DNA of 63,739 nucleotides, filler included, from Asterionella formosa (Eukaryota): NCBI GenBank assembly GCA_002256025.1. It is 29 parts of 29 records of this genome, joined end to end, with 100 filler letters (N's around TTAATTAATTAA, not from the genome) between each part and the next. Parts side by side here need not be neighbours in the genome. Positions count along the whole stretch, not along the records: positions 29,118 to 45,659 come from NKIB01004822.1; 28 more parts are not named here. One strand, given 5' to 3'. A program made the position numbers and the translations under genes. This document shows positions 1,135 through 41,828 of the stretch, one piece after another. How positions within the stretch are numbered: the stretch's first letter is position 1; each line of letters starts with the position of its first letter. The notes under the pieces are model-generated. The model was not told the DNA's origin. It worked only from the letters and a program-made list of their open reading frames with translations, and made no database searches.

Positions 1135-1136
1135 CA

Positions 1137-11770: not shown

Positions 11771-12720
11771 GCAAATGTTCAACTATGTATAGTACATTTA
11801 AACTTCTTACAAATCTTTATATATATGTATTCATGGCTGAAACATTTGAAATCATGTTTTCATGTTCCTTGTCATGCATACACTTTGCTCCTGAATTGAA
11901 GGATTAACACAGATGATGACGCGGAAAACGAAAGTGATAATAAAGCACAATGAGCGATACTTGCGGCTTAGAAGAGAAGGGCGGAATCAATTGATGGTAA
12001 GTCAAGAGCAGATGCCTTTCATGTTCCTTGTCATGCTGCATCCACTTCCTCAAATGAAGGATCTCAAGCAACACATGATGCGAAAAACTGAAGTGACAAT
12101 ACAGCACGATAAGAATGAGTGAATATGATGGAGAAGGGCGGAATCAACAAGCTGTGCTTAGCATCACGGTTTGTCAAGAGCAAATGCCAAGATGATCAAT
12201 TGCTGGGATTACAAATACGGAATGACTCGTCCCCTTTCAGTGATTCAATAGCTCCTTTTCGATTTGGTGGCTGGTCAACCATCAATGTGGACAAAAGAAA
12301 TCGGTAAGTGCTGCCTATCAGCCATCTTTGGATCAATCCACAACTGTTAGAAAAACTGACACATATGTGTTGCTTCTTTCAGGATAATGGTAGACAAACA
12401 ACAGCAGTATTTGTAAGTTACAAACAGCAGTGTTGGAGCCCATTCATTGATCGATACTTTGCTTCTCATTCAATCTTCGACTGACACATTCTTCTACAGA
12501 AATATGCATCAGTTACTTCCTCAATTTGTGGTAAGTGAAGCAAGATAGAAGCGAAATGAATTTTGTTGTGTAAGCAAAACATGAACAGCTAACAATGAAT
12601 TGCTTCTCTTTGTTAGTATGATTGGGAAAACGAAACGGATTAAATATTACTGGGAAAAGGCATGAATAAAGCTTCAGTGCATATGTTTCCATTGAAACTC
12701 CTATTTTTTACTTCATTTCT

Positions 12721-13210
12721 ACCTACTCGCACCTACCAAGCCTCGAACACAAGAATACTCGCTGGCAGTGTCCACCCTCGGTTGTGTCTTACCCACACGA
12801 CCGAGGGTGGAGACTGCCTGTAAGTATTCTTGTGATCGAGGCTTGGGATGCGCGAGTAGGTTGACCGAACGAGTGGCTGCGAGAAGGTCAACCTGCAAGG
12901 GCCTCCCAAGCCGAGTACACAAGATTACCAGTAGGTAGACTCCTCCCGAGTAGGGAATTACCTAGGCAATTCATAAACTAGCTATCGGCGCGCTTTTCGC
13001 CACCACATTGCCCTTTCAGTTAACATTGAAAACCTATTTTATATAGTTTGTATGTTAGATGCGAACTAGCCAATTGCCCATCATTTAAAACGTATATTCA
13101 ATATTTTATATGTACAGTTTTTGGAATACTTAATCCTGCAATTGCCCATCATATAAAACATATTTTGTTTATTTCATATGCTCCGTTTTTCGACTGCCAA
13201 AATACCTTTA
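12721..13210 (+). repeat. Dispersed structured repeat, copy A: inverted arm, CGAG-periodic rod hairpin, ATTGCCC(ATCAT) repeats
   Basis: Foldback 12721-12861, hairpin 12802-12950, ATTGCCC at about 13008, 13073 and 13141. Homologous in reverse orientation to about 32275-32692. Confidence 0.85.
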
Positions 13211-22228: not shown

Positions 22229-22294
22229 GTTGGACGATAACTATCAAGTCCAAATTATTTTCATTAGCCTCTCTTATTAGTTGGTTGTACGATA

Positions 22295-24171: not shown

Positions 24172-26178
24172 TCAACCCTTGGACTTTCTTGGCGACCTAG
24201 GTGACCTGTTGTTTAATGCGATGTCTTCGTACCTCGTGGGCTTTTGAACCGTTCTCCTTCCCCTTTCCAAGGCAGCCGTACCAAAGAGAAGCCCTAATTT
24301 ACTTTTGCTTATCAGGCCATGTTGGGCTTGAAATAGACATTCACTCAGGGGTGCGACAGTATGCACTTGAAGGGCCCCCTCAACTGAATGCAAGTTCTGG
24401 TAATTCTTTTTAATGTTGTTGCTATTCCTTTCATTTTGGCCCAAATTTTTTCTTGTATCTGACACTTCTGGAGTCCTTGCGACAGATTGATGGTCGATGG
24501 CTAAGTTGACAACCTTCGAAATTTCATCCAAACAAACGACATCACGGGTTTCCTCCTCCATCAAATGTCGCCCGTCCGTTTCTGAGTTGACAGCTTCAGG
24601 AAAGTATTTTCCCCCTTCGGTTTCAACAGCCGGAGCTGTGAACAACTCCACGGAATGTGTCTTGTGATCGTCGGAGTTAATCGAATAGTTTCTTGGATTC
24701 GTGTCGTCGCCACTATCCTGCCGAAATTCGTGCAAGCCACGGTGGGTGTCAAGATCTGTAGGCTCGCCAACCTCTCGAGAAACACATCGCTTGAGGAGAT
24801 GTGAATCTATTGAATCTTCAAGCACAAGGTGGTCTCGTTCTTTTTCCGTATGTATTGTTTGCTGCTCGGGGGGAAGGAGGAATAATTCTACAGATCGCCG
24901 ATTGTGGAGCAACATATCAGGCAATTCAGAAGATTCAGATTGCACGTTTACAGATACCCATCCGTTTCCCCACTTGACAATTTTCCCCACACGGTTGACA
25001 AATGGACCCAGCCCGATTAGTACATATTTGTCAAACCATTGGTCAGATGAAATCGAGCCCAGAAGAGGATACGAACACTTAATAAGCTGAGGAGGAAGCT
25101 TTGCATTCTCCATTTCACTTCGTGACGATGCGACCGAACAAGCATCTTCTAGAGCCAATAGTTGAGACTCGTCGCCAGCACGACGTGGGGTGTCTGCCTG
25201 ATATAAAGGCGATTCAGTGACATGTAACAAGTCCGGAATAGGAGGACATCCTTCGATCTCATTCTGTGCTGTCGATCCTATCTTGCTTGTCTTAGGTGTA
25301 GAACCACTACCTCCTCGTCTAGGGGGAGGGTTCGCGTCATAGTCAGCATGCAGAAAGCAATACTTACTTGAAGTCACAGATACGTATGCACATGGTCGCC
25401 CTCTTGTCGTTGTCGCTAGGCAGCGCACATCATCATCACACCCTGTGTATCGCTTGTCTTGGCGGGCACTAATTGGAACCTGAATGCTGCTTTCTGACTG
25501 CACAGTGCCCTCAGACAAGCAACCATCCGTACCAATAGTTTGTACACGAGCACCAGGACTTATGTATTGCTGATAATGAAGCTTGCAATACTTGCTACCG
25601 TTATAACATGGTTGTCGACGACAAAACGAATTATTTCTTGAAGTACGACCATGACAACCTCCAGGCAAGGGAGCAGCCAGGGGGAGATGGTGAATCCGCC
25701 TAGGGTTGCTGTCTGGAAGTTCTCTAGGTGTGACTAGCCCAGTAGGTGTTACTGGAGGAGGACCAAACGCAAGAGGGAAGTGCACTATGCTACCGGTACT
25801 AATTTCCGAGTTTACGTTGTGCAAACGAGAGTTTCGTTGGTCGGTTTCAGTTTCACCTTGAGGCCCTGACATCGTCGACAGTGTCAGCGGGAAGCGGGCA
25901 GTTGCCGCTGCAACAATAGCCAAGGCAGCGATTCTGTCGGTGCTCTGCCTGTTATACGAATCGCTGTAAGCCGGCGAAGGTGTTACAGTTTCAGAACTTG
26001 TGTAGTATTCATTGGATAGAGGTGTTCTCTCCCAAGAGGGCGTGGATTCCAAGATAAGACGCCGTTTCTTGAAGGGCAACAAGCCTCTCCGCTGTATTGA
26101 ATTTGAATCTATGCTCCTTGTCAGAACTTCGTTCCCTAGGACAGACCCAAAAGTAATATCTGCATTGCTGTGCATCAT
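24172..26178 (-). CDS. Putative nuclear protein with two C3H zinc-finger-like motifs and a KOW/Tudor-like domain (start uncertain)
   Basis: Long ORF. CHGRTSRNNSFC...KYCKLH and CLATTTRGRPC...KYCFLH; VLIGLGPFVNRVGKIVKWGNGWVSV; basic motif PFKKRR. First in-frame ATG at 26178. Confidence 0.8.
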   Translation of the reverse strand: MMHSNADITFGSVLGNEVLTRSIDSNSIQRRGLLPFKKRRLILESTPSWERTPLSNEYYTSSETVTPSPAYSDSYNRQSTDRIAALAIVAAATARFPLTLSTMSGPQGETETDQRNSRLHNVNSEISTGSIVHFPLAFGPPPVTPTGLVTPRELPDSNPRRIHHLPLAAPLPGGCHGRTSRNNSFCRRQPCYNGSKYCKLHYQQYISPGARVQTIGTDGCLSEGTVQSESSIQVPISARQDKRYTGCDDDVRCLATTTRGRPCAYVSVTSSKYCFLHADYDANPPPRRGGSGSTPKTSKIGSTAQNEIEGCPPIPDLLHVTESPLYQADTPRRAGDESQLLALEDACSVASSRSEMENAKLPPQLIKCSYPLLGSISSDQWFDKYVLIGLGPFVNRVGKIVKWGNGWVSVNVQSESSELPDMLLHNRRSVELFLLPPEQQTIHTEKERDHLVLEDSIDSHLLKRCVSREVGEPTDLDTHRGLHEFRQDSGDDTNPRNYSINSDDHKTHSVELFTAPAVETEGGKYFPEAVNSETDGRHLMEEETRDVVCLDEISKVVNLAIDHQSVARTPEVSDTRKNLGQNERNSNNIKKNYQNLHSVEGALQVHTVAPLSECLFQAQHGLISKSKLGLLFGTAALERGRRTVQKPTRYEDIALNNRSPRSPRKSKG

Positions 26179-27805
26179 TGCCACTGAGATCAATGCTGGA
26201 GTGGTAGAACGTACAATCACTTGATTTGAGTCACCGGCACAGGGACTCGCCAAGATTCGGTAGCTCTACTACAACAGAGACTGATAGAATCCCAGAATTG
26301 TACCTTGAAGGAACTTGACTGAGAGCTTGCTCGGCGCTACCTCTTCGAATAAGATCTTAGTGGAAAGTTCTGCAAAGAAGAAGCGAGCTAGTCTAGGGAA
26401 AGTAGATGCGGACCCAGGAACAGTAGGGCAAAAAAGGAATCCTTTTCTCACGTTGAGGGCAGTACAGAACAAATGCGTTGCTGCAATGTATTCAGCTTCT
26501 CTTACAACAGGTTGCTCGGAGTTCAACACTGCAGAGCTCTAGAGATTCTTCAAGAATGCGTAGTGACTCTCAATAGCTGAAAGTTTCGTTCGAAACTGGT
26601 GGCACTTGTCTTGGTTGGCGACAACGAAGCGAAATGAATTTGCAGAAGTATGCTAGGCCGTTATAGCTTTGTTCCTGGCCATCATGTACGGTACATGGTG
26701 TATATTAGAAGGGCTGATCCAGGTGCGGTTTTACGTATGTACGCGTATATCAAATGTCATCTTAGTTTCTCAAGGTGCTGCCACTGATGATGCTGCCTGG
26801 CTGGGGGCCGAGGACAGAGGAGGAGGTCCCATATATAGATTCAAGCTTGCGGCTGTCAGTGAACCGAAGTACCGGTATTTGCTGGCTTGACGGCAAGAAC
26901 ATATTCTATGTAGGATATCTTCTGGTATACTTTCTACTCATATCATGTGGTAGGACCGTATACTCCGACAACTCCGGGTGCCACGTATGGAACACATGCG
27001 AACGCTTCATTGCACAAGGTACCAGGTAGTCTAGTACAAGGTACCTGGTAGCTGGTACCAGTACCATGTAGCTGTTTGCACCTGGGTGTCGTTCGTCATC
27101 ATCACAGCGCTGCCTCGTCCTTCGCCTCCCTCCCTCACTCCGCCCGCCCATGGTTCTTGTCATTTCCCATACTATGGATACATACGTATGAAAGGTTCGA
27201 GGAAACAAGGCGGTTCTTACGACAAAGCGAAAAAAGGTAGAGTTCTCATTTCTAATACGCACATGACATGCTGCTCTACCTGGTAGCAGTAGGTACCCTG
27301 GTACCAGGTACCACCAGGATACCAGCAAGTTGCGGTCATTTTGTTGCTGAAATTGACAACGTGACGCAGGACAGGCGTTTTTACATAAGAAAACCTCATC
27401 AATTCACTCTTTAAAATCGTCTACCGGTTTATGCATGGTGATTTGAAATCTCACCACCATCACGCTTCCATCATTCCCATCTCACAATGACTCCATTTGC
27501 GGCGTCTATACAAGCAATCAAATCTAAGCTAATAAATAATTTGATACACATTTTTACTTTACTTCAATCATTTTATTGTGTAGACGTCTTTGTAGTCATT
27601 GTACAGCTACATCTAAGCCGCGTATTACGTGAAGTGACCATCACGTAAATAAGCCTAGTTGATTTTGAATGGATCACATGAATTAGTTGAATACATCAAA
27701 ATGCTTACTTGAATATATCTATATATTATCTGAATACATCACGTTAATTATTTGATGAGAGTATCATGCATGCATTCCTGATCATCACTATATTACGTGA
27801 TCACC

Positions 27806-27884
27806 TTCACATAATTATTTGAAATACTTCACATAATTATTTGAAATACTTCACATAATTATTTGAAATACTTCACATAATTAT
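27806..27884 (+). repeat. 22-bp tandem repeat (about 3.5 copies, runs off the contig)
   Basis: TTCACATAATTATTTGAAATAC units, with degenerate versions from about 27640. Confidence 0.9.
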
Positions 27885-27984
27885 NNNNNNNNNNNNNNNN
27901 NNNNNNNNNNNNNNNNNNNNNNNNNNNNTTAATTAATTAANNNNNNNNNNNNNNNNNNNNNNNNNNNNNNNNNNNNNNNNNNNN

Positions 27985-29017
27985 TTAGTTTTAGTTTAAT
28001 CTTATAATTAAGAAACAGTGAGAATTGACAGAGTAAGGTCAATAGCGAAAACTAGCACGAAGGCTAGCAGCAGAAAGAAGATAACAATACTAGTGGTATA
28101 GCAGGTAAGTTCTACGTAAGAGGAACCCGTCAGACGGGAAGGAGTACGAGACCTTTCAACACGCTTTAAAGCGTTCACTTTAAGGCCACAGGCTACTCAG
28201 GAACCATGGGAAGTGACGAAGACACGTCAGTGAGGTTGCCGACATTCGATGGGCAAGATGCTAAATGGCACATGTGGAAAGCGAAGTTTCTTGCATACGC
28301 GTGCTACAAGAACTTTCAAGGAATACTTAACGGTGACGAACTACCAAGAGGAGAGAAAGACCTAAAGGGCGATACGATCGTGTTGTCGGATGCTGACAAG
28401 AGACGCATCCGAAGGAGTAACACAGTTGCTTACGCAAGTCTGATAATGGCATGCCAGAGTGGGCCATTCGGACACGTAAATAATGCAAGAAGTGCCGAGT
28501 TTCCTAACGGCAATGCTAAAGAAGCATGGGACAAGCTCATTTCTACGTATGAGTCAGGCAACATGGCGAATGTCATTGCCTTGTCCCACCAATGGACGAA
28601 GTGCACTCTAGGGGAAAACGAGAACCCCGACAGCTGGTATGTGGAGTTGGATCGAATCCGGAAACGATTGGACGAAAGTTGAAGCAAAGAAAACGAACAA
28701 AGGAAAGAACAAACAATGGAATAATCAAAATGGTGAGTTTGAAAATAATTATGTGATTGTCGATATCAATGAAGCGCATGCGATGCTTGGTCATGTGGGC
28801 GAGAAATGTTTGCACGATACGGCGAAATTATTTGGATGGAAGTTGAGCGGCATCATGACAGTGTGCGCAGGCTGTGCGGCAGCGAAAGCGAAAGCACGAG
28901 CCGTCCCAAAAACAACGCAAGAAAAATCGACGGTACCTGGAGAGAGACTGTTTGTGGACATCAGCGGACCCTACGCGAAATCCGCTGTTGGCAATCAGTA
29001 CTGGGTCATGGCAGTGG
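27985..29017 (+). mobile_element. Ty1/Copia 5' part: LTR end, gag N-terminus (28206-28682), internal deletion, GAG-pre-integrase and integrase start
   Basis: LPTFDGQDAKWHMWKAKFLAYA...NAKEAWDKL (gag). HAMLGH...CAGC and PGERLFVDISGP...YWVMAV (HHCC and first catalytic Asp). Zinc knuckle and protease are missing. Confidence 0.9.
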
Positions 29018-32000
29018 NNNNNNNNNNNNNNNNNNNNNNNNNNNNNNNNNNNNNNNNNNNNTTAATTAATTAANNNNNNNNNNNNNNNNNNNNNNNNNNN
29101 NNNNNNNNNNNNNNNNNAGTTGGTAGATGCTACGTATCTGTAGCTCTCACGCAGTAAAATTTGCTAGAAAAATGTTTCTACACAATTTGTTTGTTTTACT
29201 TTGTTTGCTAATAATTGTTTTTATAAAAGAGTGAGCTTAATGTAAATGTAAATTTGAATGTATGATTTTGAAACTTCCAAGCTCATGCATGTTTCAAAAT
29301 AGAGGTGATCTTCGGAGGCGAGGTTCATTTGTGTTCCCAACTTGAACTGAGAATAAACTACATCCTCTTCCTAAATACACATTTGTCTTAATCTTGGCCT
29401 GTCTCAACTTTGGCCAGATGCTGTTGGATCGAAGACTGCTTACAGAATGATCCTGTTAATCATAACTAGATCATATCTAGTTTGCTTCTTTAATGTTCCT
29501 TGATGTTGCGGACATATCTGTAATTGTCTAGTCAATCATTTATTGATTTGGCTTCTAGGTCTGATCGTCTTCTAGAGTCCATTTAACAGGTTAGAGAGAA
29601 CTTCTCCTGAAAGTTCCTCTCTCAACTGTGGCATTTTACACGCGATATTTAACCATGTAATCTTGAATCAATCATTTAGTGGATTGTGGTACATGTTCCT
29701 AATCAGGTCACTAGAGGCGAAAATATATTGACACTCATAACCTGATCAGGAATCAGGAATCTCTATGTGTTTCAACTTACTGTACATATACACGAATATA
29801 TCTTTTAGTAATGGAAAGTGGAAACACGATATAAACAGCTGCAGTGCAAATCACGACGAACCCAATCATCACCAGCCAGGCACAGAGAAAAACGTTTACC
29901 AAAAATGTTTCATTCTACTGATGTGTGCTCTACAAATTAATTTCATATCCTGTTGGTTTTACTGTTAGAAGCAGTTGGTGGTCTACTACAAATCCATTGA
30001 TTGCTTCAACATACATAAATATGTATTGGTCATGCATATTTCCACCATAATGTGCCTGCTGTTCACCATTGAATGACTTTACCAGAAGGATGTTCCAATA
30101 TTTCTCCACTACTCCCCTTCATTCAAGCTGTTAACTAATGTAAGGGTGCCACAAGATTACCCAGGTTTGCTGTGGAATCAATCTGAAAATTTTGAACAAT
30201 TACAAAGAAGTATCTCATCAATTCATTTACCTGGTTTCTGTGATGCAATAATCTCCCCTTTCTACTATTTTGCTGCCATGGGACATATCCCCCCTATCTG
30301 CAGTGTTCCAGTGATAAGTGGCTGGTGAAAAGAAGAAAGATACCCAACATCACAATCTCCCTCCCACCATAGTGTAGGGTTCTTGTACAGGCTGGCAAAG
30401 GAAGTCCTTGGTTGTTGGGAGAGTAAAATAATAGAGAAAACCCCATGATATTATGATACTTTTGTTGGTGCTGTGAGCATCTGTGTATGTTACTATCTTA
30501 AAAGTTTTGTCGCATACCGGAATACAATGCTAAGTATGTACCGATATGGCTGTTGTTCAATTCACCTTATCATCATCAATCAGCAATTCCCGCTCCAGCT
30601 ATCGTCTTGCCATTCGGGTACTTCTAAGTAATTTTTAGGCTCTAAGTAATTTCTTAAGTAATTTTTATTTAAGGGCAATATGTGGCACATCGAATTTTTC
30701 GGCAATAAAATTGCCGATTTTAGCATGACAACCAGAATAACGGTAATATGCATAGAGATGGTACAACAAGCGTAAAACACACGAGAATGATTGTAACATG
30801 CAACATCAATGAAAATTGAACATGATGTTTGGAGCAACCAAAGTATGAAATGAGATGTAATAAGTAGCATCAAATGAGAAATAGAAAAAATTGTTTTGGG
30901 TTAGAAAAAAAAATAAGAGTTCCAATGGAGACGTAGCTATGCATTGTGAATCATTGTAGTACTTACAGCCACACCAGGCAACATTGACTTTCCATCGCCA
31001 TACAATCGAAGACCGAAAGAAGAAGAAAAAGAGCTCAACCCAATGTATACCTGAATGGTCTGGTTGCTGCAACCATGCGCATCGCTGTAGTAGCCTGACA
31101 CCAGCCAGTAGCAGTATTTCCGCCACAGTCATTCCTCTCGCTCCGCCCACCAAACCGGCAACCCTGATCATTCCATTCTGAGCAAGCATGATCGCCACAC
31201 TGCTCCAGCACTATTGACTCTCTCTAGCTGAGTATTCATGTAGCTTCTGATACGAACTCGCAGTAGAAATGTAGCAAAGCGCGTTAGTACAAGAAAAGCA
31301 TTGCTTGGCGGCAATATTGACATCATTGTCAATGACTATACAAATCAACAAATACGATCAACAACGGCACAATACCACATCATCAAAGAGTAGTCATTGA
31401 TAAATGCATTGGTTCTCATGTAGATATGTACAATCGAAACAAAACGACAGTGCGTAACGACAAACAACGATGGAAGCGATCAAAACAAACCACGGAAGCA
31501 ATCAAATCGGAAAGTCGATAAATACGATCTACAATCCACATTCAGTGTTTCACTGTTGTACTTACCGATCCGCTTCAACTAGCATAACAAGCAGCAAACG
31601 ATGGGATCAAAGAAAGACGAACGTTGCCTATTGCAAGCCCGAATAGAGCAAAGGCAGGCAAGATAGAGTGAGAACTATATTTGTGAGGACGAAATCGGGC
31701 ATACGGTACGTAAAATCAATGAATATGTGAACGATATAATTCAACATTTCAGGTCTCGTAAAAATAATACCGAGTCTACAGAGAGAATATTATTACGTGT
31801 TCAAAGTAAGCGTTAAAGCATAGCTTAAACCATGCATGGTTGTTTTTAGTACCACGTACGTATGTAGACTAGATGACTGCCGGTAACCGGTAGAATATCG
31901 GTTAAGCATCATTACATACATGACCGGAGCAAAAACTTGCCACCAACATCAGATGTATCGATATCATCATGAGTCCGACGAAATATGGACGATGCGACTA

Positions 32001-32274
32001 CATGAATGCCTCGAGAAGACAAGCAATCCAACAATCAACCGCATCCTTTAGGCAAAGAATCGCTACTGGCGTCATCGTGGAACTGATTTCGCTTCAAACC
32101 GGTCATGATGGACGACGATTGGCATGGTGAAAGGTGAATTGCCGGAGTCCACTTTTCAGGAGACGAACAAAAACGAGGTGAATTCTAGATATAAATTATT
32201 AGAATCTGAATAGTATATAAAATGGTTTCCTTAAGTAGACCCCTTGCCGATTTCGGCAATCCCAGGGCTGGAAA

Positions 32275-32692
32275 ACCGAGGGGCAATTGGCGTCTGTTGT
32301 CTTGCCAAAATGCGAACATATGAAACATACAAAATATATTCTAATGATGGGCAATACCTGGACCTTTGGCAATTTTCGAGGTGAATATAGGAAATATCCA
32401 AAATATATTTTATATGATGGGCAATAGTAGGCTAAAATTGACATTTATGCTAAATTTGTGGGCAGTAGGTAAGCGAATGACGCGACGATAGCTAGAGTGG
32501 GAATTGCCTCAACAATACCCTTCTCGGCGGCTACTTGCCTTCTCGTATCCATGTGTACTCGACTGGGATGGCACTCGTAGGGTGACCTTCTCGCAGCGCC
32601 GGGGGCGCCACTCGTACGGTCAACCTACTCGCGCCACCCAGCCTCGAACACATGCATACTCGCAGGCAAGAGACCACCTCGGGCGTGTATTG
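32275..32692 (-). repeat. Dispersed structured repeat, copy B: CGAG-periodic rod hairpin plus ATTGCCC(ATCAT) repeats
   Basis: Ten CTCG on the plus strand, arranged symmetrically about GCGCC-GGG-GGCGC. Homologous to about 12795-13210. Confidence 0.85.
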
Positions 32693-32908
32693 CCTTCAGC
32701 ACGAGATCCCAAAACGCGTTTCGCTTTCTAATAATAATTTAAATCATTGTCTGGTTCCACCTCATTTTCTTTAATACCGTTAGTCTATGTATACCGCTAT
32801 ATTATTTCTTACCAAGTATAGCAACAAAATAGAATTTCAAATCATACGTTCACTTTTTCGGAATTTATATGCTCTACAACTTTTCTAAAACCGTTTTCTC
32901 AACTAGCC

Positions 32909-34294
32909 ATGAAGAAATCGCAAACGCTCACCATGAGAATTCAATTCATATGGCTCGGATTCATGATTTCTTGTGCATTTCTATACAATGTCATTCGATT
33001 GGATAATTTGTCCTTGGGCTACGTTCCATTCATTCTTGATGGTCTGTCACCTCCAAGTAGTGTCGTCTACCTCTCCCTTCCGCCAAAAGAGACTGAGACG
33101 GCTCACATCTATCATTGGGAATGGCACCCTCCACGCCATGAACGATTTCCTTCTGTTGACAAGAGAGTTCAGGTTTATATGTCCAACTGGTACCTTCCTC
33201 CCTGTTCGAATGAAACAAAATTTCTGCACACCTTCAAGGTGCCTCCGAATGAGCAGGGCTTCGCCGTCTTGGAGATTCAAGGGAAGAAATTCCCTCCGAC
33301 AAATTTTACCAGTCATATTGCTTCCGATCTACCGGTTCTTCTAAATAGAGTGGCTATGATGGAATGTGTTCGATTCGAGAAACCAACTGATTGGGGAAAA
33401 AGCTTGGGACGATCACATAATCTCAAATATTATACTCAAGATAGCTTTCAGTTGTTTGATCTGGTTGGAAACACTGTGCCGGTGTTGGCAAAATTCGGAG
33501 ATAGTAGGACCATCATGAAAGTACCCATCTTTGCCAAGTGGAGATGGTTGGCTGATGAGGAGGCCCTGAACGATGTTACACTTTCAACATGTAGTGGAAA
33601 CAGGAGATCGGACCTTTCCATCAATGGCGTCCCAAACAAGTCTCCGGCTCCCATTATATGGAAGCTTAATCAAATCAGACACTGGCACCCGCTCCAGACT
33701 ACACGAACCCTGGATGTCCCGTGGGAAGATAAAATCCCACTTGCAGTGTGGAGAGGTTCGTATACAGGCAAATGCATTCGAAACGGTCACATTCAAAACG
33801 AGGATGAGTGCTTGGCGAACCCACGATGTCGATTTGTTTATGATCATGTTCATTCAACTCTAGTTGACGCAGGCTTTTTATCTACCACCAAGATTGTTGA
33901 ACTTTTTGATGTTGCAGTTCGAAAGGATAGACTTGACATGCAGGCCTTGCTCAAGTATAAGGTTATTATCAGTCTTGAGGGAAATGATGTTGCTTCCGGA
34001 TTAAAATGGCAACTCTTGAGCCAATCAGTTGTTATGATGCCTCCCCCTACTCGAACATCTTGGGCAATGGAAGAGCTTCTCATACCATGGGTACATTATG
34101 TCCCCATCCATCTGAATGGGAGCAATGCAGAAGAACGTGTTCAATGGGTACTCGAACATGATGAGGATGCTAGAAAGATTGCTGAACGTGGTTCTCTGTT
34201 CATGCATGACCTGACACTGCATCCATTAGCATCGAATGAGGAAATGGAAGTAATGACAGAGATGGCACGAAGATATCGTGACTTGTGGCACTAG
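32909..34294 (+). CDS. Glycosyltransferase family 90 (CAP10/KDELC-like), type II membrane
   Basis: PWEDKIPLAVWRGS; KYKVIISLEGNDVASGLKWQLLSQSVV; LIPWVHYVPI; HDEDARKIAERG; N-terminal TM. Intronless 461 aa. Confidence 0.92.
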   Translation: MKKSQTLTMRIQFIWLGFMISCAFLYNVIRLDNLSLGYVPFILDGLSPPSSVVYLSLPPKETETAHIYHWEWHPPRHERFPSVDKRVQVYMSNWYLPPCSNETKFLHTFKVPPNEQGFAVLEIQGKKFPPTNFTSHIASDLPVLLNRVAMMECVRFEKPTDWGKSLGRSHNLKYYTQDSFQLFDLVGNTVPVLAKFGDSRTIMKVPIFAKWRWLADEEALNDVTLSTCSGNRRSDLSINGVPNKSPAPIIWKLNQIRHWHPLQTTRTLDVPWEDKIPLAVWRGSYTGKCIRNGHIQNEDECLANPRCRFVYDHVHSTLVDAGFLSTTKIVELFDVAVRKDRLDMQALLKYKVIISLEGNDVASGLKWQLLSQSVVMMPPPTRTSWAMEELLIPWVHYVPIHLNGSNAEERVQWVLEHDEDARKIAERGSLFMHDLTLHPLASNEEMEVMTEMARRYRDLWH

Positions 34295-34437
34295 TTGAAG
34301 TGGAATAGCTACCGACAACAATGCACGAAATCACGAACGCCTTCCTTTGCTGAAGATTGCAAATTATGGAGTATTCGTTCAATCCGAGCATAAGACGAAA
34401 GAATATCTAGAAATCCGTCAACTATATCCAAACATAG

Positions 34438-36201
34438 CTATCTTTTACTTACTTCCATTTCGCCTTCGAGCGCGGCGCTCGTGCTAACCGGTGATATTTC
34501 CTCCGTTAGCAGCATGAAGGCAGTGGCAGCCCTCGCAATGGTCTCGTCTTGTTTACAAAATGCGATGCGGACAAATTCGTCTGACGCACCAGCTGACGCC
34601 TTTAAATCCGAAAAGAATGGGCTCGACGGAATACAGAGAATGCCTTTTTCTTCTGCCATCCATTGACATAATGCCCAGTCTTGACGAGTGAAACCACCAG
34701 GGGCTGCGTCGTTCGGAGTCATGAGACGATTTACAGGAATAGCATTCTGGACATTTCTTCCAATTCGAGCAAAGATAAAGAATCCACCTCCTGGTGTGCG
34801 GGAGTAGTCAGGAACAGCAAACCCAGCTGATGTCAACGCGTTGCTGAGGAGGTCTCGTTTTCGAGTATACTTTGCTTTCAGGTAGTGGTAGTAAGAAGTG
34901 TGGCCTTCGTATGGTTCGTCTGCACGTGGGAGGGCTCTCGCCAATGCCTCTTGTATCAAAGTGGAAGCACAGAACTGTACATATGGTAACAACTGATGAA
35001 TTCTAGAAATAAGGCGCTTGGGGCCAATGCACCAACCAACTTGCCATCCAGTCGCTGAGAAAGTCTTTCCTGCCGAAGATATGGTAATGGTTCGATCCCA
35101 CATACCTGGCAAGGACGCAAAGTGAACATGGCCTTCGCATAACACCGATTCTCCTTTTCTTTGTTCACTTTCCTGAGGTGGTGCGTGAACTATATACTTA
35201 TAGACTTCATCAGACAGAACAACACAATCGGGTCCCGCAAATTCCATGGATTCTGCAATCATTTCCATTTCGCTCCTCGTGAAAATCTTTCCAGTCGGAT
35301 TATGTGGCGAATTTAATATTATGCCTTTGGTGCTTGGTGAAATAGCATTGTTGAGCAACTTTCCATCCAATACCCAGTCTCCACCAGTGATAACATCTTC
35401 CCCCTCCTCATACGGTATAAAGGTGAGCGGAACATAAACAGGTGTACCACCAGCTAATTTGATTTGGTTGACGTATAAATCAAAGAAAGGCTCAAAAAGA
35501 ATGACTTCGTCACCTGTTGATGATCGTACCGTCCAAAAAATGTTGTGAGATCGTGCCAATGAGGACACGGTGTTCAATGGGGCTCAAGGTGTAAAAGTCA
35601 ATTTGACGTACGTACCTGGATTAATGAGAGTCTGCAAACTCAGAAAGAGGGCCTGACTAGCACCGACTGTGATGGCAACGTCTGCCATGGGGTCGATCTC
35701 ACGATTTAAATGCACTGAGTACCTAGTGGCCAACTGCTTGACCAAGTTCGGATGTCCAGCGGATCTTGTATATTGGTGAGGGCTCTGCTCAACATCCATG
35801 GCAGCTTCCACGAGGCTATCGATAGCAAACTTGGGAGGGAACCAGTCTGGGAAGCCTTGACCCAGATTGGCAACATCGTTATCTTGCGCCAGCTTGCTGA
35901 ATTGAGTCCAAACGGTGGGGCCTGCCGTAGATCCAAGTCGACGGATCGCTGCCCCCGCAGGAGTAGAAAACGATTCTCTCTTGATTTCGTTCGATCCGTT
36001 GACGCATGTTTCATTATCACCATCGAAACGGCCAGATTCGCATCGTTTAACTAACGATGAACTGAGTCGACTTCGAGAAAGGCGCGATGGAGAAAACGCC
36101 TGAATAGCCGCAAGGTTGGGGCCAAAAAGAAACAGAAACAGAATCAGTAGATTGCTGCGAAGCTGAAGTCTCATTGTCCTGCTCCTTGCCATCCACGCCA
36201 T
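34438..36201 (-). CDS. PLP-dependent class I/II aminotransferase (kynurenine/glutamine transaminase-like), probably plastid-targeted; exons 36201-35616 and 35513-34438
   Basis: NLGQGFPD, HQYTR..G, NSPHNPTGK, SDEVY, SAGKTFSATGW, VRIAFCK. 102-bp GT-AG intron. Signal peptide followed by IQA-FSP. Confidence 0.93.
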
Positions 36202-37063
36202 TACCTTTTCAAGCGAATTTAATTATCTCACTGTTACATCGATGACGAGAAAGGGGTGCCAATTACTCAGTACGACCCCCAGTACGACTGTCCACGAAGA
36301 AAGAAAATCATCAGCTAGATGAGATTGGATGTGAACATCATAATGTATTATGACGACTCACGTCCACGTACCAACTCCTGTGGATGGCTGATCCGAAGGA
36401 AGTGTAACAACAGGCTGACGCATTCGCAATATCATACGAACAAAGCAAGGTCGTGGTATCATTCCCTTTTATTTCAGGATAATATTTCATGAAGTACGCG
36501 CAGGTAATTTATATTTTATACACACACAGGGACCGGTACATACTGGTATGTGCAGACAGCTGATCATGCCCCAGAAGTACATACGGGTATATCGGTAGAC
36601 ATACTGTACCCCTACGATACATTCAAACATAGGAAACCCGGATGATATGTATGTAGAAAACAATCGGAAAAACAGTGGCTGACCTACGTAATTTATGAGT
36701 TGTCAAGAGAGGGCCATAGTTCTACCTAACCTTGCCAGTGTGATGATGTTCTGGGATGCACATGGAAGCCTAGCTGACTACCGGTAAAGCGATCCGTGGG
36801 AAACCCGGAGGTGGAATACATCAGGGTTCTCAACAATAGTGTTAAAATACACATGCAACCTTTTGTGCTTCAAATGTTTGTTGATAAAATGGGCAATTGA
36901 AAGACATTGTAAAAAGAATCCTAATTAGTCTTATGTTTTCTTAGCAAAATAAATATAATTTTCATGATGCCGATCGACTGAACCAAATTGAGGGGTTGAG
37001 TGCAGCATTTCGATTTTCAACTTCATCATCTCTCAGCGAATCTTGGCAGCATTCCAGACTAAA

Positions 37064-38310
37064 GAAGCATCTCCACCGCATCGACCAAATACCAAGCAAA
37101 TTGCAGTTGGGAGTGATTACACATCATGATGCATTGTGTTGGTCAAAAAAGCAAAAATATTTTAGCCATGACCGCATCAACCAAGACCAAATATGCTTTG
37201 GTCTTGTTCGAGGATGACTCCCTTATTGACCAATTATCAGGTATTTGGTCAATGAGACTACGACTATAGCCAAATAAAAGAAGCATTTCTATTGATTTAG
37301 ATTGTAGCTTGCACCGGCAACCTAGAAACTGAACGAGCAACTAGAGTTTTGAAATAATTTGGTTATTAATTACTCTGCTAAAATTTAATATTAATAATAT
37401 TTTATTTATCCTCATTTCGAGTCCACAAGTGCTCAATCAAATCATTTCGCAATTGATAGCAGTGCTCACCTTCATTCATGTGGTTCATTCGAATTGCTTT
37501 GAAATCTAGAAAAGTATGCACATTGTCATGATTCACATTGTTGACCAATTGACCAAAAAGCCATCCTGAATATTCAAATTTAAATTCGTTTGTGTCTTTT
37601 GTATCCCACTCATCTTCTATAATCATGTTGTGTAGTATGAAACATGCAATGATAAACATGATTGATTGCAACCACTGACCGAAGTTTGCACGGAAGTGCC
37701 AGGATCCCCCTCTTGCCTGTAGCACACCAACAAATGCTCGCTCTACTTCCTTGTGTTGGGCCTCTTAAACCATTGAAAATTTGCACCTTGTGGTTCCGAA
37801 TTTGTTTTGACAAAAATGTGCCAATCTGGATAGATGCCATAAACCAATTTGTTGTTGATTGTGAAGTTGACGGCAGGAGTCCTTCCAGCTGTCAAATCCA
37901 GGAAAAACGGAGAACGATCCAAAATATTGAGATCGTTGTTAGCACCTGGAATTCCAAACCATGCGTGCCAGAACCAAAGTTCTACAATCGACAGCAGCTT
38001 CCAAAGCAACAGTGGCCACTCCATCTTATCCTTGAAATGCTCCTCTGTGTGCCTTGCTGGGCCAATTCTTCCATTCCCACTGCATCAGCCACATCCAATG
38101 AACCAAGAAGTCAACTGAGCAGCAGGTACAGGAGAAGAAACAAACGGGTAGTTCAATGGACAGGCATAGTGATGGAGGTGTGAAAAATTATGATTCACAG
38201 ATGGATTCTTGTTCGGAGATCAATTTTTGAAATTCCATTGCATGCAAATCGCGTAGCAAATGGCCTACGGATCCGTCAGATTGTCAAAGTGCCTCAAAAC
38301 ACAATATGAT
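37064..38310 (-). mobile_element. Degenerate PIF/Harbinger element: transposase C-terminal half plus 3' TIR
   Basis: WFWHAWFGIPGANNDLNILDRSPF, GIYPDW, ACFILHNMIIEDE, QLRNDLIEHLW, with several frameshifts. Terminus AGCATCTCCACCGCATCGACC. Confidence 0.9.
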
Positions 38311-38952
38311 AGTATCTACTGATTAATTCTATAGTTCCTTATCATTATACCTGTTTATTGGTTCACCAACACAACCCAAAGCACCGCCATTGTTGATCAG
38401 CTTGTTGATTTAAAATTCCTAGTGGTTTTCTCATGCTATATTGCTTGTGCTCGAGGGGAACTTTATAATGGCCGATTTTTCCAAAATAATAAAGTAGTAA
38501 CATAAAGTACAATAGGAATTTGAGGAGAGGATGCTCCACTAAAACTTCGGTGAAACTCGAAAAAGAAGTTTTACCTTTAGGAAAAACAGGCTAAGACAAC
38601 CCAGAAAATACAAACTTTTGACTAACTACTGCGAAGGTTGCATGTGTAGTGCTTATAATATCTTACCAATACATACTATCTAAAATATATGAATACATGT
38701 TATCATAGAACAGAATAAGACATGTTCTGACGTATGCCATGCATGTTATCTGGAATTGACTGTTGACTGTGGTTGCTTGTTAGTTTTAGGTCAAGAAAGA
38801 ATGTGCTTTATCATACATTTCTTGATGATCTGTGTCACCCATTTCGCCCTCTGTTCCTGCATTTTAATTGGACCGAAAAATTAAGTAGTGTGAGAATACT
38901 GGTATGTTACACTTTTATTTCATTCCAAGCTTGATACAAGAAATCATTCATT

Positions 38953-39090
38953 CCCCCAATTTACATATTTAACAAGATTATAATTTCTCAAGATTCAATG
39001 GTGCATGGAAGTTCCCCCCCCCCCCCCCCAATTTGCATACTATTTAATGTGGGTATAATTTCTCAAGATTCAATGGAGCAATGGAAGTTT
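38953..39090 (+). repeat. Tandem duplication of about 70 bp separated by a poly-C tract
   Basis: CCCCCAATTT...TATAATTTCTCAAGATTCAATGG...ATGGAAGTT occurs twice. Confidence 0.8.
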
Positions 39091-39535
39091 TGATGTTATG
39101 TCTTCAAGGAAGAAACTGCAGTTGGTTCGAATTGGTCATCTCGCCATCGAGGATCGAGCCGGGACTTGAGTGTGTTGCAACCACCGGTATATGCATACCG
39201 GGAGACTACCTGGTACCTGGCAAGTTGCGCTAATTTTGCTGAAGCTAAAGATTTAGCTATCTTTATCATAGATTAAAATGTTAGTTTAAGCAAAATGACC
39301 GCAACTTGCTCTGGTAGTTGAACAGAGGGAGTACACATATCATACATTCGAAGTATGTATGTACAAGTACCTTGTGCCCATGATCGCTCGCCGCTGGGGG
39401 CGGGCGGCCATCAAACATTTCCATGCAGCACCTGGTACTAGGTACTGTAGCTATACCGGTAGTCAACCATGATGTTCCCTCGACACATAATTGAACGCCC
39501 CCGTTTTTCTATTGCACCATAAGTTACCATTCACC

Positions 39536-40288
39536 ATGCGTCTTTCTTTGGCACTGTTCGTTCTTTCCGCTTCGTCTGTGGCTTCATTTTCGCCCGGTTG
39601 CTCTATTCCCCGAAGAACTGCATTGATGGCTAGTTCCGCTGCTACTGAGACAATCGCCAAAGCTCGCAAAGCCGCTGGACTCCCAGTAGAGGAGGAAGCT
39701 CCTCCTTTGTTCTCTGACTCTCTATTAGAGGACATGAGAGCATCTCTTCTCAAGCTTGAAAAGCGTGTCAAAGAAGGACCCGGCGCACTAACACACGAAG
39801 AAGTTGACGAATTTCAGGCTGCAACAAATCGGATTTTCATCGACATGAAGGCGCAAGCGGACGGTTTGGCCAATCGATCAAAGCCTGGTGAACGTGTGGT
39901 AGAACTTGCTGCGAATCCACCTCCAGGAGTGGAGCTTGTTTACGAAGACACTGCAGCACCACTAGAAATATCAGCAATACCCGAGACCCCGCAAGTCTTG
40001 GACACGTCCAACGATGAGGGGCCTGCTTATACTGGCAAGGGAGGTATGGGTCTGGCCCAGGGAACTACCAACACGTATATCATTGATGGGATGGATGAAA
40101 TGACGCCAGAAGAGTATCAAAAGGCCTTACAGGAGAGCATTAGTGCAAGACAAAGAAATCGTCATAAGAGCGGTATCTACGGCAATAGAGCGACTTGGGA
40201 CTACTTGAATCAACTCAATGGAGATCACCACGCCAGTATCTTGAAGGACGGATCCTTGACGCCTCTGAACATTAATGAGGATCAGTAA
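39536..40288 (+). CDS. Predicted plastid-targeted protein of unknown function
   Basis: MRLSLALFVLSASSVAS-FSP (signal peptide plus ASAFAP-like motif). 250-aa ORF with coding-like composition. Confidence 0.8.
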   Translation: MRLSLALFVLSASSVASFSPGCSIPRRTALMASSAATETIAKARKAAGLPVEEEAPPLFSDSLLEDMRASLLKLEKRVKEGPGALTHEEVDEFQAATNRIFIDMKAQADGLANRSKPGERVVELAANPPPGVELVYEDTAAPLEISAIPETPQVLDTSNDEGPAYTGKGGMGLAQGTTNTYIIDGMDEMTPEEYQKALQESISARQRNRHKSGIYGNRATWDYLNQLNGDHHASILKDGSLTPLNINEDQ

Positions 40289-40659
40289 GTGCTGGTTCCT
40301 GTCCGACTTTTGAATATTTAGAGTTTGAGAGGCGCTATCAATAAGGTCACGTACTATAGCATCTGTCTCCTAGTTTTATTCTCCTTTTTTTCTGTGGTAA
40401 TTTCACTTAGGATCAGATGATGACTCTCTTAGATTACCGAACAGATCCGTATGGTATCGAAATGGCTTTTCACGAAGGACAGCCTACTTCCATGCACGAC
40501 ACGAAAGCAATAAGGTTGCTACGATCTAGCAGCTGTACCTGTTAATGTGCACTCATATTTCAAATATTTCAATACTCAAAGACGGATGTCTCTCATTAAC
40601 TCGAGATGCCATTGTTTATGAAAGTAACTCATTTCAGCCATGAGCCAATCACAAAATAA

Positions 40660-41828
40660 TTAATCTTCCAACTGGGGTCTGGATGCATGCGTCAAAATTC
40701 CGCACGTGCCTTCCTCAACAGTCGCGCTCTCTCTTGCGATCTTAATGAAACCAGAATCCCCCCAGAATTCACCCCATGAGTTCTTCACCAACCAATAGTC
40801 GATGCCCTCGTCCGACGTTCCGTATCCAACCGCCAAGACACCATGATCGACATTGACTCCACAGTCTCCCGAGAAAACACCCTTCTTGTAAAACTGAAAA
40901 CCAGTTTGATCCGCTTCAATCGCAACCGACACAGGTTGGATCGCAATGGCCGCCATCAAATCGTCATTCGTCCCATTGGCGACATCAAAGAAGGTCTTCA
41001 CTCTAGTATGAGGGACATCATCACAGAGTCCCTTCTTTTCATAACATCCTCGGAACCAATGCTTGTGTCCAGCATATGGATAATCTTCTTCCGAACAGAG
41101 TCCTGTGTTGTTCTCATCAAATAGGAAAGCATTGTCCATTAGGCCGCCCGTGCAACCAGAGTCTAGCTTATCGCAGTCCACTAATTGTTGCTCACTCAGC
41201 GAAACTAGTTCGCCTGTATCCAAGAACCTCGCCCCTTCAATCGCTCCAATTGCAGAGTACGCCCAGCAAGATCCGCAAGCTAACTGGTTCTTGACTGGTG
41301 TGACGGCTCCATCGGCATTCCAATCGACAAAGGCGGGCAACTCGTCAAGAGTGCGTGACAACGCCACTTCCACTTGCGATATTGCTTTGATACGATCCGG
41401 TGTGAGAATGCCAGGAGAAAAAGGACCCAAAAAGTTGTGCTCTTGAAATTCTGACAGAGTCATGTCAGAAAACTGATTGTGTCCCATTTCGAACATTGGA
41501 GGTGGGTCTTGATGATTGTGCGCTTCCATCAAGACTGATGGCACAACAACGATTGGAAAATTACGAAATTAGAATAATACTGAAGCATTTTCTGCTGATA
41601 CCATCTACAAGAGAACAACTTACCGTGATTCTCGAACCAAACTTCCATGCGCTTGGCCAATTCTTTGGCAGTCTTGTATTCTTTATTGAATTCTGCTTTC
41701 CATGCTAGAAACCGGGGCTTGAGTGCACGGAACTGTCCCTCTAGTATTGCATCTCTTGAAGTCGTAGCCGCATTACAGCCAGCCAACAGCCCGCTAGTAA
41801 AGAGTTGAATCACAGCGATCTTCATCAT
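40660..41828 (-). CDS. Cathepsin L-like (papain C1A) cysteine protease with I29 prodomain; exons 41828-41624 and 41534-40660
   Basis: Signal peptide, NQFSDMT, QLACGSCWAYS, DHGVLAVGY, KNSWG. 89-bp GT-AG intron. Confidence 0.95.

Follow-up and report, generated by a model that had tools for sequence, protein, structure and literature searches.

The window, that is, the whole stretch of 63,739 nucleotides (filler included) from the freshwater diatom Asterionella formosa that we analysed, is a string of contigs separated by artificial N44-TTAATTAATTAA-N44 spacers. On its plus strand, at 30580..32701, lies a complete unit of a repeat, about 2,122 bp long and devoid of recognisable coding capacity, which closes with a 197-nt hairpin (32505..32701, no strand assigned) whose left arm runs to 32600, whose apex is GGG at 32601-32603 and whose right arm runs to 32701. 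The preliminary description had this hairpin start at 32505, as we find, and end at 32695, which has to be moved to 32701. We refer to this copy as B; a second one, copy A (12795..13205, minus strand), represents the 3' part of the unit in diverged, rearranged form and matches 32292-32688. Because the window is a chain of separate contigs, copies A and B are unlinked, and a single element of 20 kb having the two inverted copies as its ends was rejected, as they lie on different contigs with ordinary host genes between them. The trehalose-phosphate synthase of the host also identifies it as a diatom. A copia gag fragment and a PIF/Harbinger transposase fragment also occur elsewhere in the window, the copia fragment on a different contig.

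No Pfam family was found at E<=0.01 in any of the 32/32 ORFs of at least 45 aa scanned in 29118-32184, and Rep, helicase and recombinase domains are absent from the window ORFs that were scanned. The two longest ORFs (P0003 and P0004) were considered as a coding partner inside the unit and rejected, since they resemble low-complexity noise and have no Pfam match.

Both edges of the unit can be recognised. On the right, thousands of contigs stop matching at 32701 and run on into diverse flanks, contigs from runs X1, X2, X15 and X18 match as far as this position, and two further copies, L001 and L003, diverge there too. On the left, the shared sequence begins at 30580 with TCAGCA (30580..30585, plus strand; one independent left end), a direct repeat of the last six nucleotides of the unit (32696..32701, plus strand), which B, L001 and L003 all carry. 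In L001, a stretch of 430 nt directly following ...TTCAGCA matches 30586-31013 on the same strand (95.9% over 434 columns), forming a head-to-tail junction with a single TCAGCA at the join; one window copy and one short-read metagenome contig provide the left end and the junction. The left flank reads ...CATCAA directly before TCAGCA, and on the right TCAGCA is followed by CG or AT (AT or ATT in L001 and L003, not in B), which leaves the boundary ambiguous within 6-8 nt. Since TCAGCA is found on both sides, the cut can be placed between T and C, a placement that the one left flank allows rather than proves.

Just inside the 5' end, starting 3 nt from it, lies the first arm of an asymmetric inverted repeat (30583..30621, plus strand), and the second arm (32469..32507, plus strand) ends at the hairpin's foot, 194 nt before the 3' end. 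The arms are 39 nt long and 82% complementary, and co-folding of both ends is predicted to gain about -21 kcal/mol while leaving the hairpin intact. Upstream of the hairpin are three subterminal repeats of about 69 bp (32278..32427, plus strand), each with a GGGCAAT (32281, 32349 and 32419), and the same arrangement is present on the minus strand of copy A (13147, 13079 and 13013). No inverted partner for the terminal 15 nt was found in the window (one other match with two mismatches, 2.15 being expected by chance), and a 5' hairpin is absent, with DNA folding z scores of +0.50 and +0.60 for 30580-30640 and of -0.31 and -0.59 for 30580-30700.

The hairpin carries ten CTCG words, at 32523, 32542, 32558, 32574, 32590, 32611, 32628, 32643, 32659 and 32678, exactly where they had been reported, whereas 0.38 would be expected from the window's own frequency; CGAG does not occur on the plus strand of the same 197 nt (0.46 expected). 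As had also been proposed, the opposite arms pair and motif faces motif: in the predicted fold of the minus strand, which is a single rod, all five pairs (5/5) form 2x2 loops of the type C-ga-G / G-ag-C. Such CGAG blocks, made of a C:G pair, two sheared G:A pairs and a G:C pair, are stable in DNA hairpins by NMR, according to the cited part of that work (PMC10085684). The minus strand is the better folder of the two, with predicted RNA energies of -113.4 kcal/mol (z -9.3) against -89.7 kcal/mol (z -5.4) for the plus strand, and of -53.5 against -46.3 kcal/mol under DNA parameters. The predominance of G.U over A.C on the minus strand likewise holds, the counts being 9 vs 3 in B and 4 vs 1 in A, and of the transitions listed for paired sites 6/7 keep pairing on this strand. 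Both the energies and the counts of G.T versus A.C favour the minus strand as the probable folding strand.

The main hairpin of copy A (12795-12960) has an apex 11 nt shorter than that of B and keeps the same register, with CGAG intact at 7/10 positions and replaced by TAAG, CAAG and CCAG at the other three. The two paired changes quoted in the preliminary description, CATGTG/CACATG versus CTTGTG/CACAAG and CTGGG/CCCAG versus CTTGGG/CCCAAG, are real. When A and B are compared on the structure of B, 57 pairs have letters in both copies and a further 15 fall in gaps; 40/57 are unchanged, 5/57 have changed on both sides and 4/57 on one side with pairing kept, while pairing is broken in 6/57 after a change on one side and in 2/57 after a change on both. 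The five double compensatory changes were reached by 0/500 shuffles, in a covariation that is that of a single comparison, there being just two diverged lineages, A and B.

Copy A also provides an internal contrast. Next to its hairpin it carries a third arm (12718..12793, plus strand), an inverted duplication of the adjacent arm that pairs in plain Watson-Crick fashion; the resulting hairpin (12712-12875) reaches -111 kcal/mol on both strands without GA loops, CTCG pairing normally with CGAG. Because a true inverted duplication yields such ordinary CTCG/CGAG pairs, the same-sense CTCG/CTCG arrangement kept in two subfamilies that are about 66-72% alike is not that of a plain palindrome, in agreement with what had been suggested.

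Whether the motifs are better kept than the stems depends on the scale of the comparison. Between A and B they are, with 36/40 motif positions kept against 100/142 positions in the remainder of the hairpin (Fisher p 0.013), but this does not extend to the thousands of copies of the family, where the 40 motif positions contain 3 of the 12 variant sites listed, each a CpG transition. The hairpin as a whole is 97-98% identical in L001, L003 and L002, and the body (31950-32304) is 88-92% identical in L001 and L003; the difference between hairpin and body is significant in both (194/197 vs 328/355 in L001, Fisher p 0.0016; 192/197 vs 284/322 in L003, Fisher p 0.0001). L002 displays no such difference, and its motif 2 has turned into a perfect Watson-Crick pair, which shows that the loss of a block is possible in at least one copy.

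The family is extremely abundant. In the algal DNA run X1, 40,699 contigs fall on 32100-32701, the last ~600 nt of the unit, with a summed k-mer depth that reaches 1.5-4.0 million in 18/19 of the bins up to 32688, is 0.8 million in the remaining one (32348-32378) and compares with 1,056 on the unique flank, the repeat thus being about 1,400-3,800 times deeper; the depth drops sharply at 32701, beyond which the flanks are diverse (agreement 0.36). By similarity, 8,289 of these contigs are at >=99%, 19,274 at 95-99%, 11,429 at 90-95% and 1,707 below 90%, classes which indicate that most copies are young. Rather than being a non-coding RNA gene or scaffold gene of its own, the hairpin is the terminal ~200 nt of a repeat of ~2.1 kb present in thousands of copies. 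That it belongs to a mobile element was rightly anticipated, but the qualification of this element as unrecognised is only half right, since the layout of its ends matches that described for Helitron2/Helentron.

Outside the window, a 20-base word taken from the right arm of the hairpin retrieved three contigs in a metagenome scan, and a scan of prokaryote genomes gave 0 matches. Relatives on viral contigs were sought with a 15-mer scan and rejected: none of the 12 loci retrieved (0/12) has further similarity by blastn, so they represent chance matches. The family is detectable in many metagenomes, both freshwater and marine.

We interpret the hairpin as the stem-loop that closes the 3' end of a mobile element which is non-coding, present in very many copies and recently active, has an end layout of Helitron2/Helentron type and would be copied in trans, a reading to which we assign roughly even odds (about 0.5). 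A nuclease supplied in trans, most likely of the HUH/Rep type, would copy the element via a single-stranded or circular DNA intermediate. Upon unwinding of the strand, the 197-nt rod would snap shut and the arms of the inverted repeat would pair, bringing the two TCAGCA ends together, and the folded ends would mark both the stop of copying and the place of their cleavage and joining. In this folded DNA the five CGAG/CGAG blocks, each two-fold symmetric, would be kept features, possibly as docking points for the enzyme, and/or may prevent the arms from forming a perfect, therefore unstable, palindrome. In the Helitron Helraiser, as reported in the cited sections, the 3' hairpin is a transposition terminator and joined-end circles are intermediates (PMC4778049).

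A bolder proposal, which we regard as doubtful, is that the rod represents a new kind of end-recognition device in a eukaryotic single-strand DNA transposon, with structure and not sequence as the signal. On the folded bottom strand each block, about 1.5 helical turns from the next, would be a dock for a nuclease dimer or for an accessory protein that binds single strands, the enzyme would measure along the 197-nt hairpin to a TCAGCA cleavage site at its foot, and the asymmetric inverted repeat would hold the other end ready for joining. If true, this would explain the survival of the blocks despite fast-decaying CpG.

The periodicity of the motifs may also be read at the level of duplex DNA, CTCG being an oriented, iteron-like protein-binding site repeated about every 16 bp on a palindromic background, and the mismatches a by-product. 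The ten words do all point in one direction on one strand with a spacing of 15-21 nt, the subterminal region has another recurrent short word (GGCAAT), binding of HUH Reps to direct repeats beside a hairpin is common, as the cited passages report (pMV158, PMC10288648), and within the family CTCG is no better kept than the stems, as the 3 of 12 listed variants attest. We nevertheless find such an array rather unlikely: a four-base word offers a protein very little to recognise specifically, and the base that flanks it varies (T, A or C); the words are exactly opposed in 5/5 pairs, in copy A too, a facing that an array does not need; and the segments between them are held complementary through the five double changes.

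The terminal TCAGCA repeats might point to a different enzyme, with the unit being a non-autonomous Crypton-like element that a tyrosine recombinase would excise as a circle and integrate via the TCAGCA shared by element and target. The recombinase would then bind the two arms of the inverted repeat around the crossover, and the hairpin inserted between them would be a passenger or have an architectural role. This agrees with the direct repetition of TCAGCA at the two ends and its single copy at the head-to-tail junction, and in the cited parts of the literature direct repeats of 4-6 bp together with a proposed circle define Cryptons, CryptonS is present in a diatom, as is the case for our host, and tyrosine-recombinase sites consist of inverted repeats flanking a spacer of 6-8 bp (PMC3212892). 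However, the same descriptions give Cryptons no terminal inverted repeats, no terminal hairpin and no non-autonomous copies in the thousands (PMC3212892), a hairpin of 190 nt within a core site would be unprecedented, and the window ORFs scanned hold no recombinase gene, all of which makes this origin improbable.

A functional minus-strand RNA rod, whether a protein scaffold or a packaging signal as put forward in the preliminary description or, for instance, a small-RNA decoy or precursor, fares less well. The very stable RNA fold of the minus strand, its excess of G.U over A.C and its mostly pairing-preserving transitions are in line with it, and contigs covering the hairpin are present in two metatranscriptome runs; single-stranded DNA would give the same strand asymmetry, however, and the RNA-library contigs that span the whole hairpin are of low depth (5-15) and derive from both strands, in libraries of a kind that can hold DNA. 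Metatranscriptome contigs of higher depth (1,579 over 32100-32272 and 599.5 from 32609) contain parts of the repeat inside other sequence, and around the hairpin they take in the right arm alone, within unrelated transcripts. The Rfam check that had been advised returned no match to either hairpin (cmscan of 12000-33500, both strands, E<=1), the two weak matches in that interval lying elsewhere (mir-239 at 24094-24173 and rli47 at 22204-22300), and the hairpin has its edge where a DNA repeat with thousands of copies ends. We consider that the hairpin is unlikely to be a non-coding RNA gene, and give an RNA function of this kind a slim chance.

Finally, a solo LTR, or the terminus of a DDE (cut-and-paste) transposon of foldback or MITE type, could be evoked from the ...CA end of the unit (the complementary strand starting with TG), from subterminal short repeats (GGGCAAT x3) common in DDE elements, and from the copia gag and PIF/Harbinger transposase fragments elsewhere in the window, but it is very improbable given that the terminal 15 nt have no inverted copy in the window, that the two arms of the inverted repeat are placed asymmetrically, the 3' one lying 194 nt in from the end, that the 6 nt beside both ends are identical across different copies, unlike a target-site duplication, that no second LTR, PBS or PPT was found and no direct-orientation copy lies on the contig, with diverse flanks after 32701, and that the copia fragment is on a different contig.

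If the interpretation as a rolling-circle-type element end holds, a freshwater diatom harbours a young family of thousands of copies whose end combines an asymmetric repeat and stem-loop of Helitron2 type with 6-bp direct repeats of Replitron/Crypton type, and which would provide a test case both for the recognition of hairpin ends by nucleases acting on single-stranded DNA and for the role of tandem sheared G.A blocks in genomic DNA. We found no description of a diatom transposable element with a terminal hairpin in the literature searched, and nothing relevant on sheared tandem G.A hairpins in single-stranded transposons among the matches listed. The family also breaks short-read assemblies of the diatom, contigs ending inside it, and given its detection in many freshwater and marine metagenomes its annotation would improve repeat masking.

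Among known systems, the closest layout is that of HLE2 rolling-circle elements (Helitron2, Helentron, HINE and DINE-1), in which, according to the cited descriptions, the 5' arm lies 0-4 nt from the 5' terminus and the 3' arm directly upstream of the stem-loop (PMC3627910, PMC5148889, PMC4067079, PMC11417382). The unit analysed here similarly has an asymmetric inverted repeat with its 5' arm 3 nt from the end and its 3' arm at the foot of a 3'-terminal stem-loop, which at 32505-32701 is about 5-10 times longer than those described. Further likenesses to these descriptions are a first base T, internal tandem repeats, the existence of joined-end or tandem forms, and non-autonomous copies that far outnumber any coding partner. 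The dimensions differ, the inverted repeat being 39 nt against 8-18 nt, the stem-loop 197 nt against palindromes of 5-10 bp in a whole 3' tail of ~20-60 nt, and the distance of the 3' arm from the end 194 nt against 20-60 nt; none of the terminal hairpins in the descriptions compared comes near ours in length and regularity. Another difference is the direct repeat of 6 bp at the termini. HLE2 elements are described as inserting between two T, or between a T and a C, with no target-site duplication. A 5' hairpin, which strictly defined Helitron2 elements have, is lacking here, although the HINE/Helentron descriptions at hand do not all require one. Moreover, Helraiser moves its top strand, as the cited section states (PMC5876387), whereas energy and G.T counts favour the bottom strand in our case.

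According to the cited part of the report on Replitrons, Rep/HUH transposons of algae and plants that move by copy-and-paste, a terminal direct repeat of 6 bp is characteristic of Replitrons or Cryptons and 'not observed in other HUH transposons' (PMC10288648). Replitrons share with our unit such a repeat at both termini (here TCAGCA), and their right ends may bear a few bases from downstream of the parent, comparable to the AT/ATT of L001 and L003; on the other hand, their palindrome is of 11 bp, an inverted repeat between the ends does not figure in these descriptions, and their proteins are reported as undetected in diatoms, the group to which our host belongs (PMC10288648). Cryptons, as described in the cited sections, resemble it in their terminal direct repeats of 5-6 bp, in a proposed circular intermediate that would give a head-to-tail junction with a single repeat and in their presence in a diatom, and differ in that neither a 39-nt asymmetric inverted repeat, nor a terminal hairpin, nor so high a copy number of a gene-less derivative is described for them (PMC3212892).

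As for the motif, the same CGAG unit occurs in DNA hairpins of the AUTS2 promoter, where, in the portion of the study cited, consecutive blocks within a short repeat are found by NMR to stabilise the hairpins (PMC10085684). Our hairpin differs from these in having five isolated blocks, 15-19 nt apart, in a Watson-Crick rod of predicted geometry. The end hairpins of IS200/IS605, integron attC sites and parvovirus ITRs are imperfect hairpins as well, in which conserved irregularities and not the sequence could indicate strand and position to a nuclease or recombinase that works on single-stranded DNA. These are prokaryotic or viral, much shorter and devoid of periodic symmetric mismatch blocks, and their likeness to the diatom hairpin would be a functional one only.

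We found that a mobile element of the diatom, young, extremely abundant and gene-less, has the hairpin at 32505-32701 as its terminal structure. Three metagenome contigs (L001, L002 and L003), retrieved with a 20-base word taken out of the hairpin's right arm, are 91-95% identical to 31629-32701, and two of the three run past the right end, departing from the window after ...TTCAGCA. The next 430 nt of L001 match 30586-31013 on the same strand (95.9%). Because the sequence it shares with the window starts at TCAGCA, at 30580, and window sequence further left is unrelated, the repeat unit is 30580-32701, about 2.1 kb. In L001 two units appear to be joined head to tail across one TCAGCA, and a short-read chimera is unlikely because the longest exact word common to both sides is ~12 nt. 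In the best DNA run (a public algal run), the plurality sequence after 32701 also resembles the start of the unit. None of the 32 ORFs of at least 45 aa within 29118-32184 matches a Pfam family at E<=0.01, and the two longest ORFs of the unit are noise-like; judged from its sequence, the unit is without recognisable coding capacity.

Contigs from four public runs (two DNA, two RNA) were aligned to 32100-33000 at 80% likeness. In the best DNA run 40,699 contigs match 32100-32701, most of them at 95% likeness or better (8,289 at >=99%, 19,274 at 95-99%). Up to 32688 their summed k-mer depth is 1.5-4.0 million for 18 of 19 bins, and the remaining bin (32348-32378) has 0.8 million. Adjoining unique sequence has a depth of 1,056, a contrast of about three orders of magnitude in which summed depth is no copy number. 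All four runs show an abrupt end of the match at 32701, followed by diverse sequence (agreement 0.36-0.44 for the larger contig sets). No depth step occurs at the hairpin's left foot among these contigs over 32100-33000, which rules out the hairpin as a separate small element. Contig joints often skip stretches symmetric about the apex, e.g. 32548 to 32657, which fits deletions within a palindrome. In the RNA (metatranscriptome) run X18, two contigs contain part of the repeat amid otherwise unrelated sequence: 32100-32272 alone in one (depth 1,579), and no more than the right arm, 32609-32701, in the other (depth 599.5). These seem to be repeat fragments that some organism carries within well-expressed transcripts.

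TCAGCA forms both the first six and the last six bases of the unit. A 39-nt inverted repeat (30583-30621/32469-32507, 82%) has its 5' arm starting 3 nt from the 5' end, while its 3' arm ends exactly at the hairpin foot, 194 nt from the 3' end. When the ends are co-folded as DNA the arms pair, gaining about -21 kcal/mol with the rod intact; in a single strand or joined circle this would bring the two TCAGCA next to each other at the foot of a longer stem, ~275 nt in length. The fold of L001 reaches -157 kcal/mol. Three ~69-bp repeats, each with GGGCAAT, precede the 3' arm, both in this copy (copy B) and in copy A, a diverged second hairpin copy.

Reading 32300-32900 and counting words reproduced all ten CTCG coordinates of the preliminary description, with starts at 32523, 32542, 32558, 32574 and 32590 in the left arm and at 32611, 32628, 32643, 32659 and 32678 in the right. 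At the window's own frequencies, 0.38 CTCG would be expected in the 197-nt hairpin, and CGAG is absent from its plus strand (0.46 expected). The start given earlier, 32505, stands, whereas the end lies slightly further out than 32695, the foot being 32505/32701. RNA folding gives -89.7 kcal/mol for the plus strand (z -5.4 versus shuffled) and -113.4 kcal/mol for the minus strand (z -9.3), and DNA parameters give -46.3 and -53.5, respectively. The minus-strand fold is a single rod, in which all five motif pairs are symmetric 2x2 loops, C-ga-G over G-ag-C. NMR has shown that in DNA hairpins this four-base unit, the 'CGAG block', forms C:G, two sheared G:A pairs and G:C (PMC10085684).

Three lines, each weak, suggest that the CGAG-reading strand (bottom, with the hairpin drawn at the 3' end) is the folding strand, in agreement with the earlier preference for the minus strand. 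Its fold energy is lower in both copies B and A (in A, -86.0 vs -73.2 kcal/mol). Fixed wobble pairs, read on this strand, are G.T rather than A.C in 9 vs 3 cases in B and 4 vs 1 in A (13/17, one-sided p 0.025, some possibly shared by descent). Finally, among seven listed transitions at paired sites across the family, pairing is kept by six on this strand and by one on the other (p 0.06). Either fold selection or one-sided mutation of an often single-stranded strand would give this pattern.

Copy A lies on the opposite strand, with 13205-12795 ~66% alike to 32292-32688; a stricter search matches 13000-12795 to copy B at 72%. CGAG is indeed present at the seven of ten motif positions reported as intact, and the altered three read TAAG, CAAG and CCAG, the first two being CpG transitions. 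The pairs of the B structure were followed through an alignment of four rows: A, B and two near-identical metagenome copies. Both A and B have letters at 57 of these pairs, 40 of which did not change; both sides changed in seven (five still paired, two broken) and one side in ten (four still paired, six broken), and 15 more pairs fall in alignment gaps. The five double changes were reached by 0 of 500 shuffles, and sliding the partners by 1-3 columns yielded 0-2. The paired changes noticed earlier are real. All five double compensatory pairs come from a single comparison, A against the B type, so that this covariation is suggestive of compensatory pairing and is no test of it.

In copy A the neighbouring arm is also duplicated in inverted orientation, giving a third arm (12718-12793) where CTCG pairs with CGAG in the ordinary way and the two strands fold with the same energy, -111 kcal/mol. 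Since a plain inverted duplication takes this form, the same-sense motifs of the main hairpin are no palindrome by-product, and the preliminary description was right to deny a simple palindrome. Past this arm, 40 nt at 12682-12721 match a stretch ~315 nt inside the unit (87.5% against the L001 version), and copy A may be trailed by a 5'-truncated next unit. Adjoining copy A, a 386-aa ORF (13405-14565, +) lacks a Pfam match; its nearest protein-atlas clusters include the fucosyltransferase family Glyco_transf_11 (score 0.95), and it is probably a host glycosyltransferase outside the element.

Within the family, identity of the hairpin to the window copy is 194/197 in L001 and 192/197 in L003, against 328/355 and 284/322 for the body at 31950-32304 (p 0.0016 and 0.0001), with no difference in L002 (141/145 vs 346/355). 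Ends better kept than the body would be expected of a cis-acting terminal signal. The second motif of L002 (~905-915 of its reverse complement, window 32541-32544) carries three changes, TTCTCG to TGCGAG, and is now the perfect complement of its partner. This looks like templated conversion between the two arms. The arms thus do interact at the DNA level, and loss of a block is possible in at least one copy.

The 56 N runs of the window, paired around TTAATTAATTAA, are artificial six-frame-stop spacers: 28 of the form N44-TTAATTAATTAA-N44 recur about every 1,133 bases (1035-11333, 27885-29117, 45660-62710) between 26 contigs of ~1,034 bp (10 opening the window and 16 closing it), one of ~1,033 bp (27985-29017) and two of ~16.5 kb, holding copy A (11334-27884) and copy B (29118-45659). 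Because the window strings separate contigs together, neither distance nor orientation has meaning from one side of a spacer to the other, and a 20-kb element bounded by two inverted copies is an artefact of copies on separate pieces. Between the two copies lie ordinary host genes, among them a trehalose-phosphate synthase/phosphatase whose closest named relatives are diatom (best 83% identity), so the earlier guess of a diatom host was right. A divergent pair of papain-family cysteine protease genes (Peptidase_C1) lies at 40663-41568 (-) and 42818-43897 (+), with E 5e-69 and 1e-55. At 37405-38084 (-), two adjacent ORFs match the Pfam family Plant_tran (PIF/Harbinger-type transposase) with E 1.8e-7 and 4.9e-20; they belong to a broken DDE transposon that has no relation to the hairpin family. 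A separate 1-kb contig carries a match to copia-type gag (28170-29073, +; Retrotran_gag_2, E 9.5e-6) and a weak gag-pre-integrase match. Tandem repeats comprise an 84-bp repeat of 7.5 copies at 4686-5314, inside an ORF matching leucine-rich repeats (LRR_6, E 1e-26), and a 92-bp repeat of 3 copies at 3017-3294 and 60712-60983, on different small contigs in opposite orientation.

Two rival explanations are live. The unit may be a Crypton-like recombinase element: Cryptons share its 6-bp direct terminal repeat and are present in a diatom, but are described as without inverted repeats (PMC3212892), which the unit has. Alternatively, the CTCG words may be oriented binding sites. Motif positions are better kept than other aligned positions between A and B (36/40 vs 100/142, Fisher p 0.013, 55 gap columns dropped), whereas within the family 3 of 12 listed hairpin variant sites, with 38 further variants beyond the list, fall in the 40 motif positions. 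These three are all CpG transitions, which make up 4-13% of depth in the best DNA run, and they speak against the motif having a special role inside the family, as does the converted second motif of L002. A free-standing structured RNA, which the preliminary description had entertained beside a mobile-element structure, is unlikely, the hairpin being the end of an abundant ~2.1-kb repeat. Interest would be clearly higher if the CGAG blocks prove to be a recognition signal.

The architecture of the element's ends points, with roughly even odds, to a mechanism whose DNA intermediate is circular or single-stranded, the nearest parallel being HLE2 (Helitron2/Helentron-type) rolling-circle elements. 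In the literature searched, we found no description of a transposon that ends in so long a rod with CGAG blocks at regular intervals. Replitrons have a 6-bp direct terminal repeat, like the unit's TCAGCA, and a right-end palindrome, and their genes are reported as not detected in diatoms (PMC10288648). In Helraiser, a bat Helitron, the 3' hairpin is the transposition terminator and joined-end circles are intermediates (PMC4778049). The use of the top strand there (PMC5876387) fits uneasily with the bottom-strand preference here; HLE2 with a stem-loop at the other end are also described (PMC11417382), however, so the unit may be oriented the other way round. HLE2 are described with short asymmetric terminal inverted repeats, the 5' arm 0-4 nt from the end and the 3' arm directly upstream of the 3'-terminal stem-loop, with T as first base and insertion at T-T or T-C, and with abundant gene-less copies, sometimes internal tandem repeats, and joined ends (PMC3627910, PMC5148889, PMC4067079, PMC11417382). 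The unit differs in its inverted repeat (39 nt vs 8-18 nt), in its stem-loop (197 nt vs 3' tails of 20-60 nt) and in having no 5' hairpin, which we looked for at its 5' end, but it has the end layout of HLE2.
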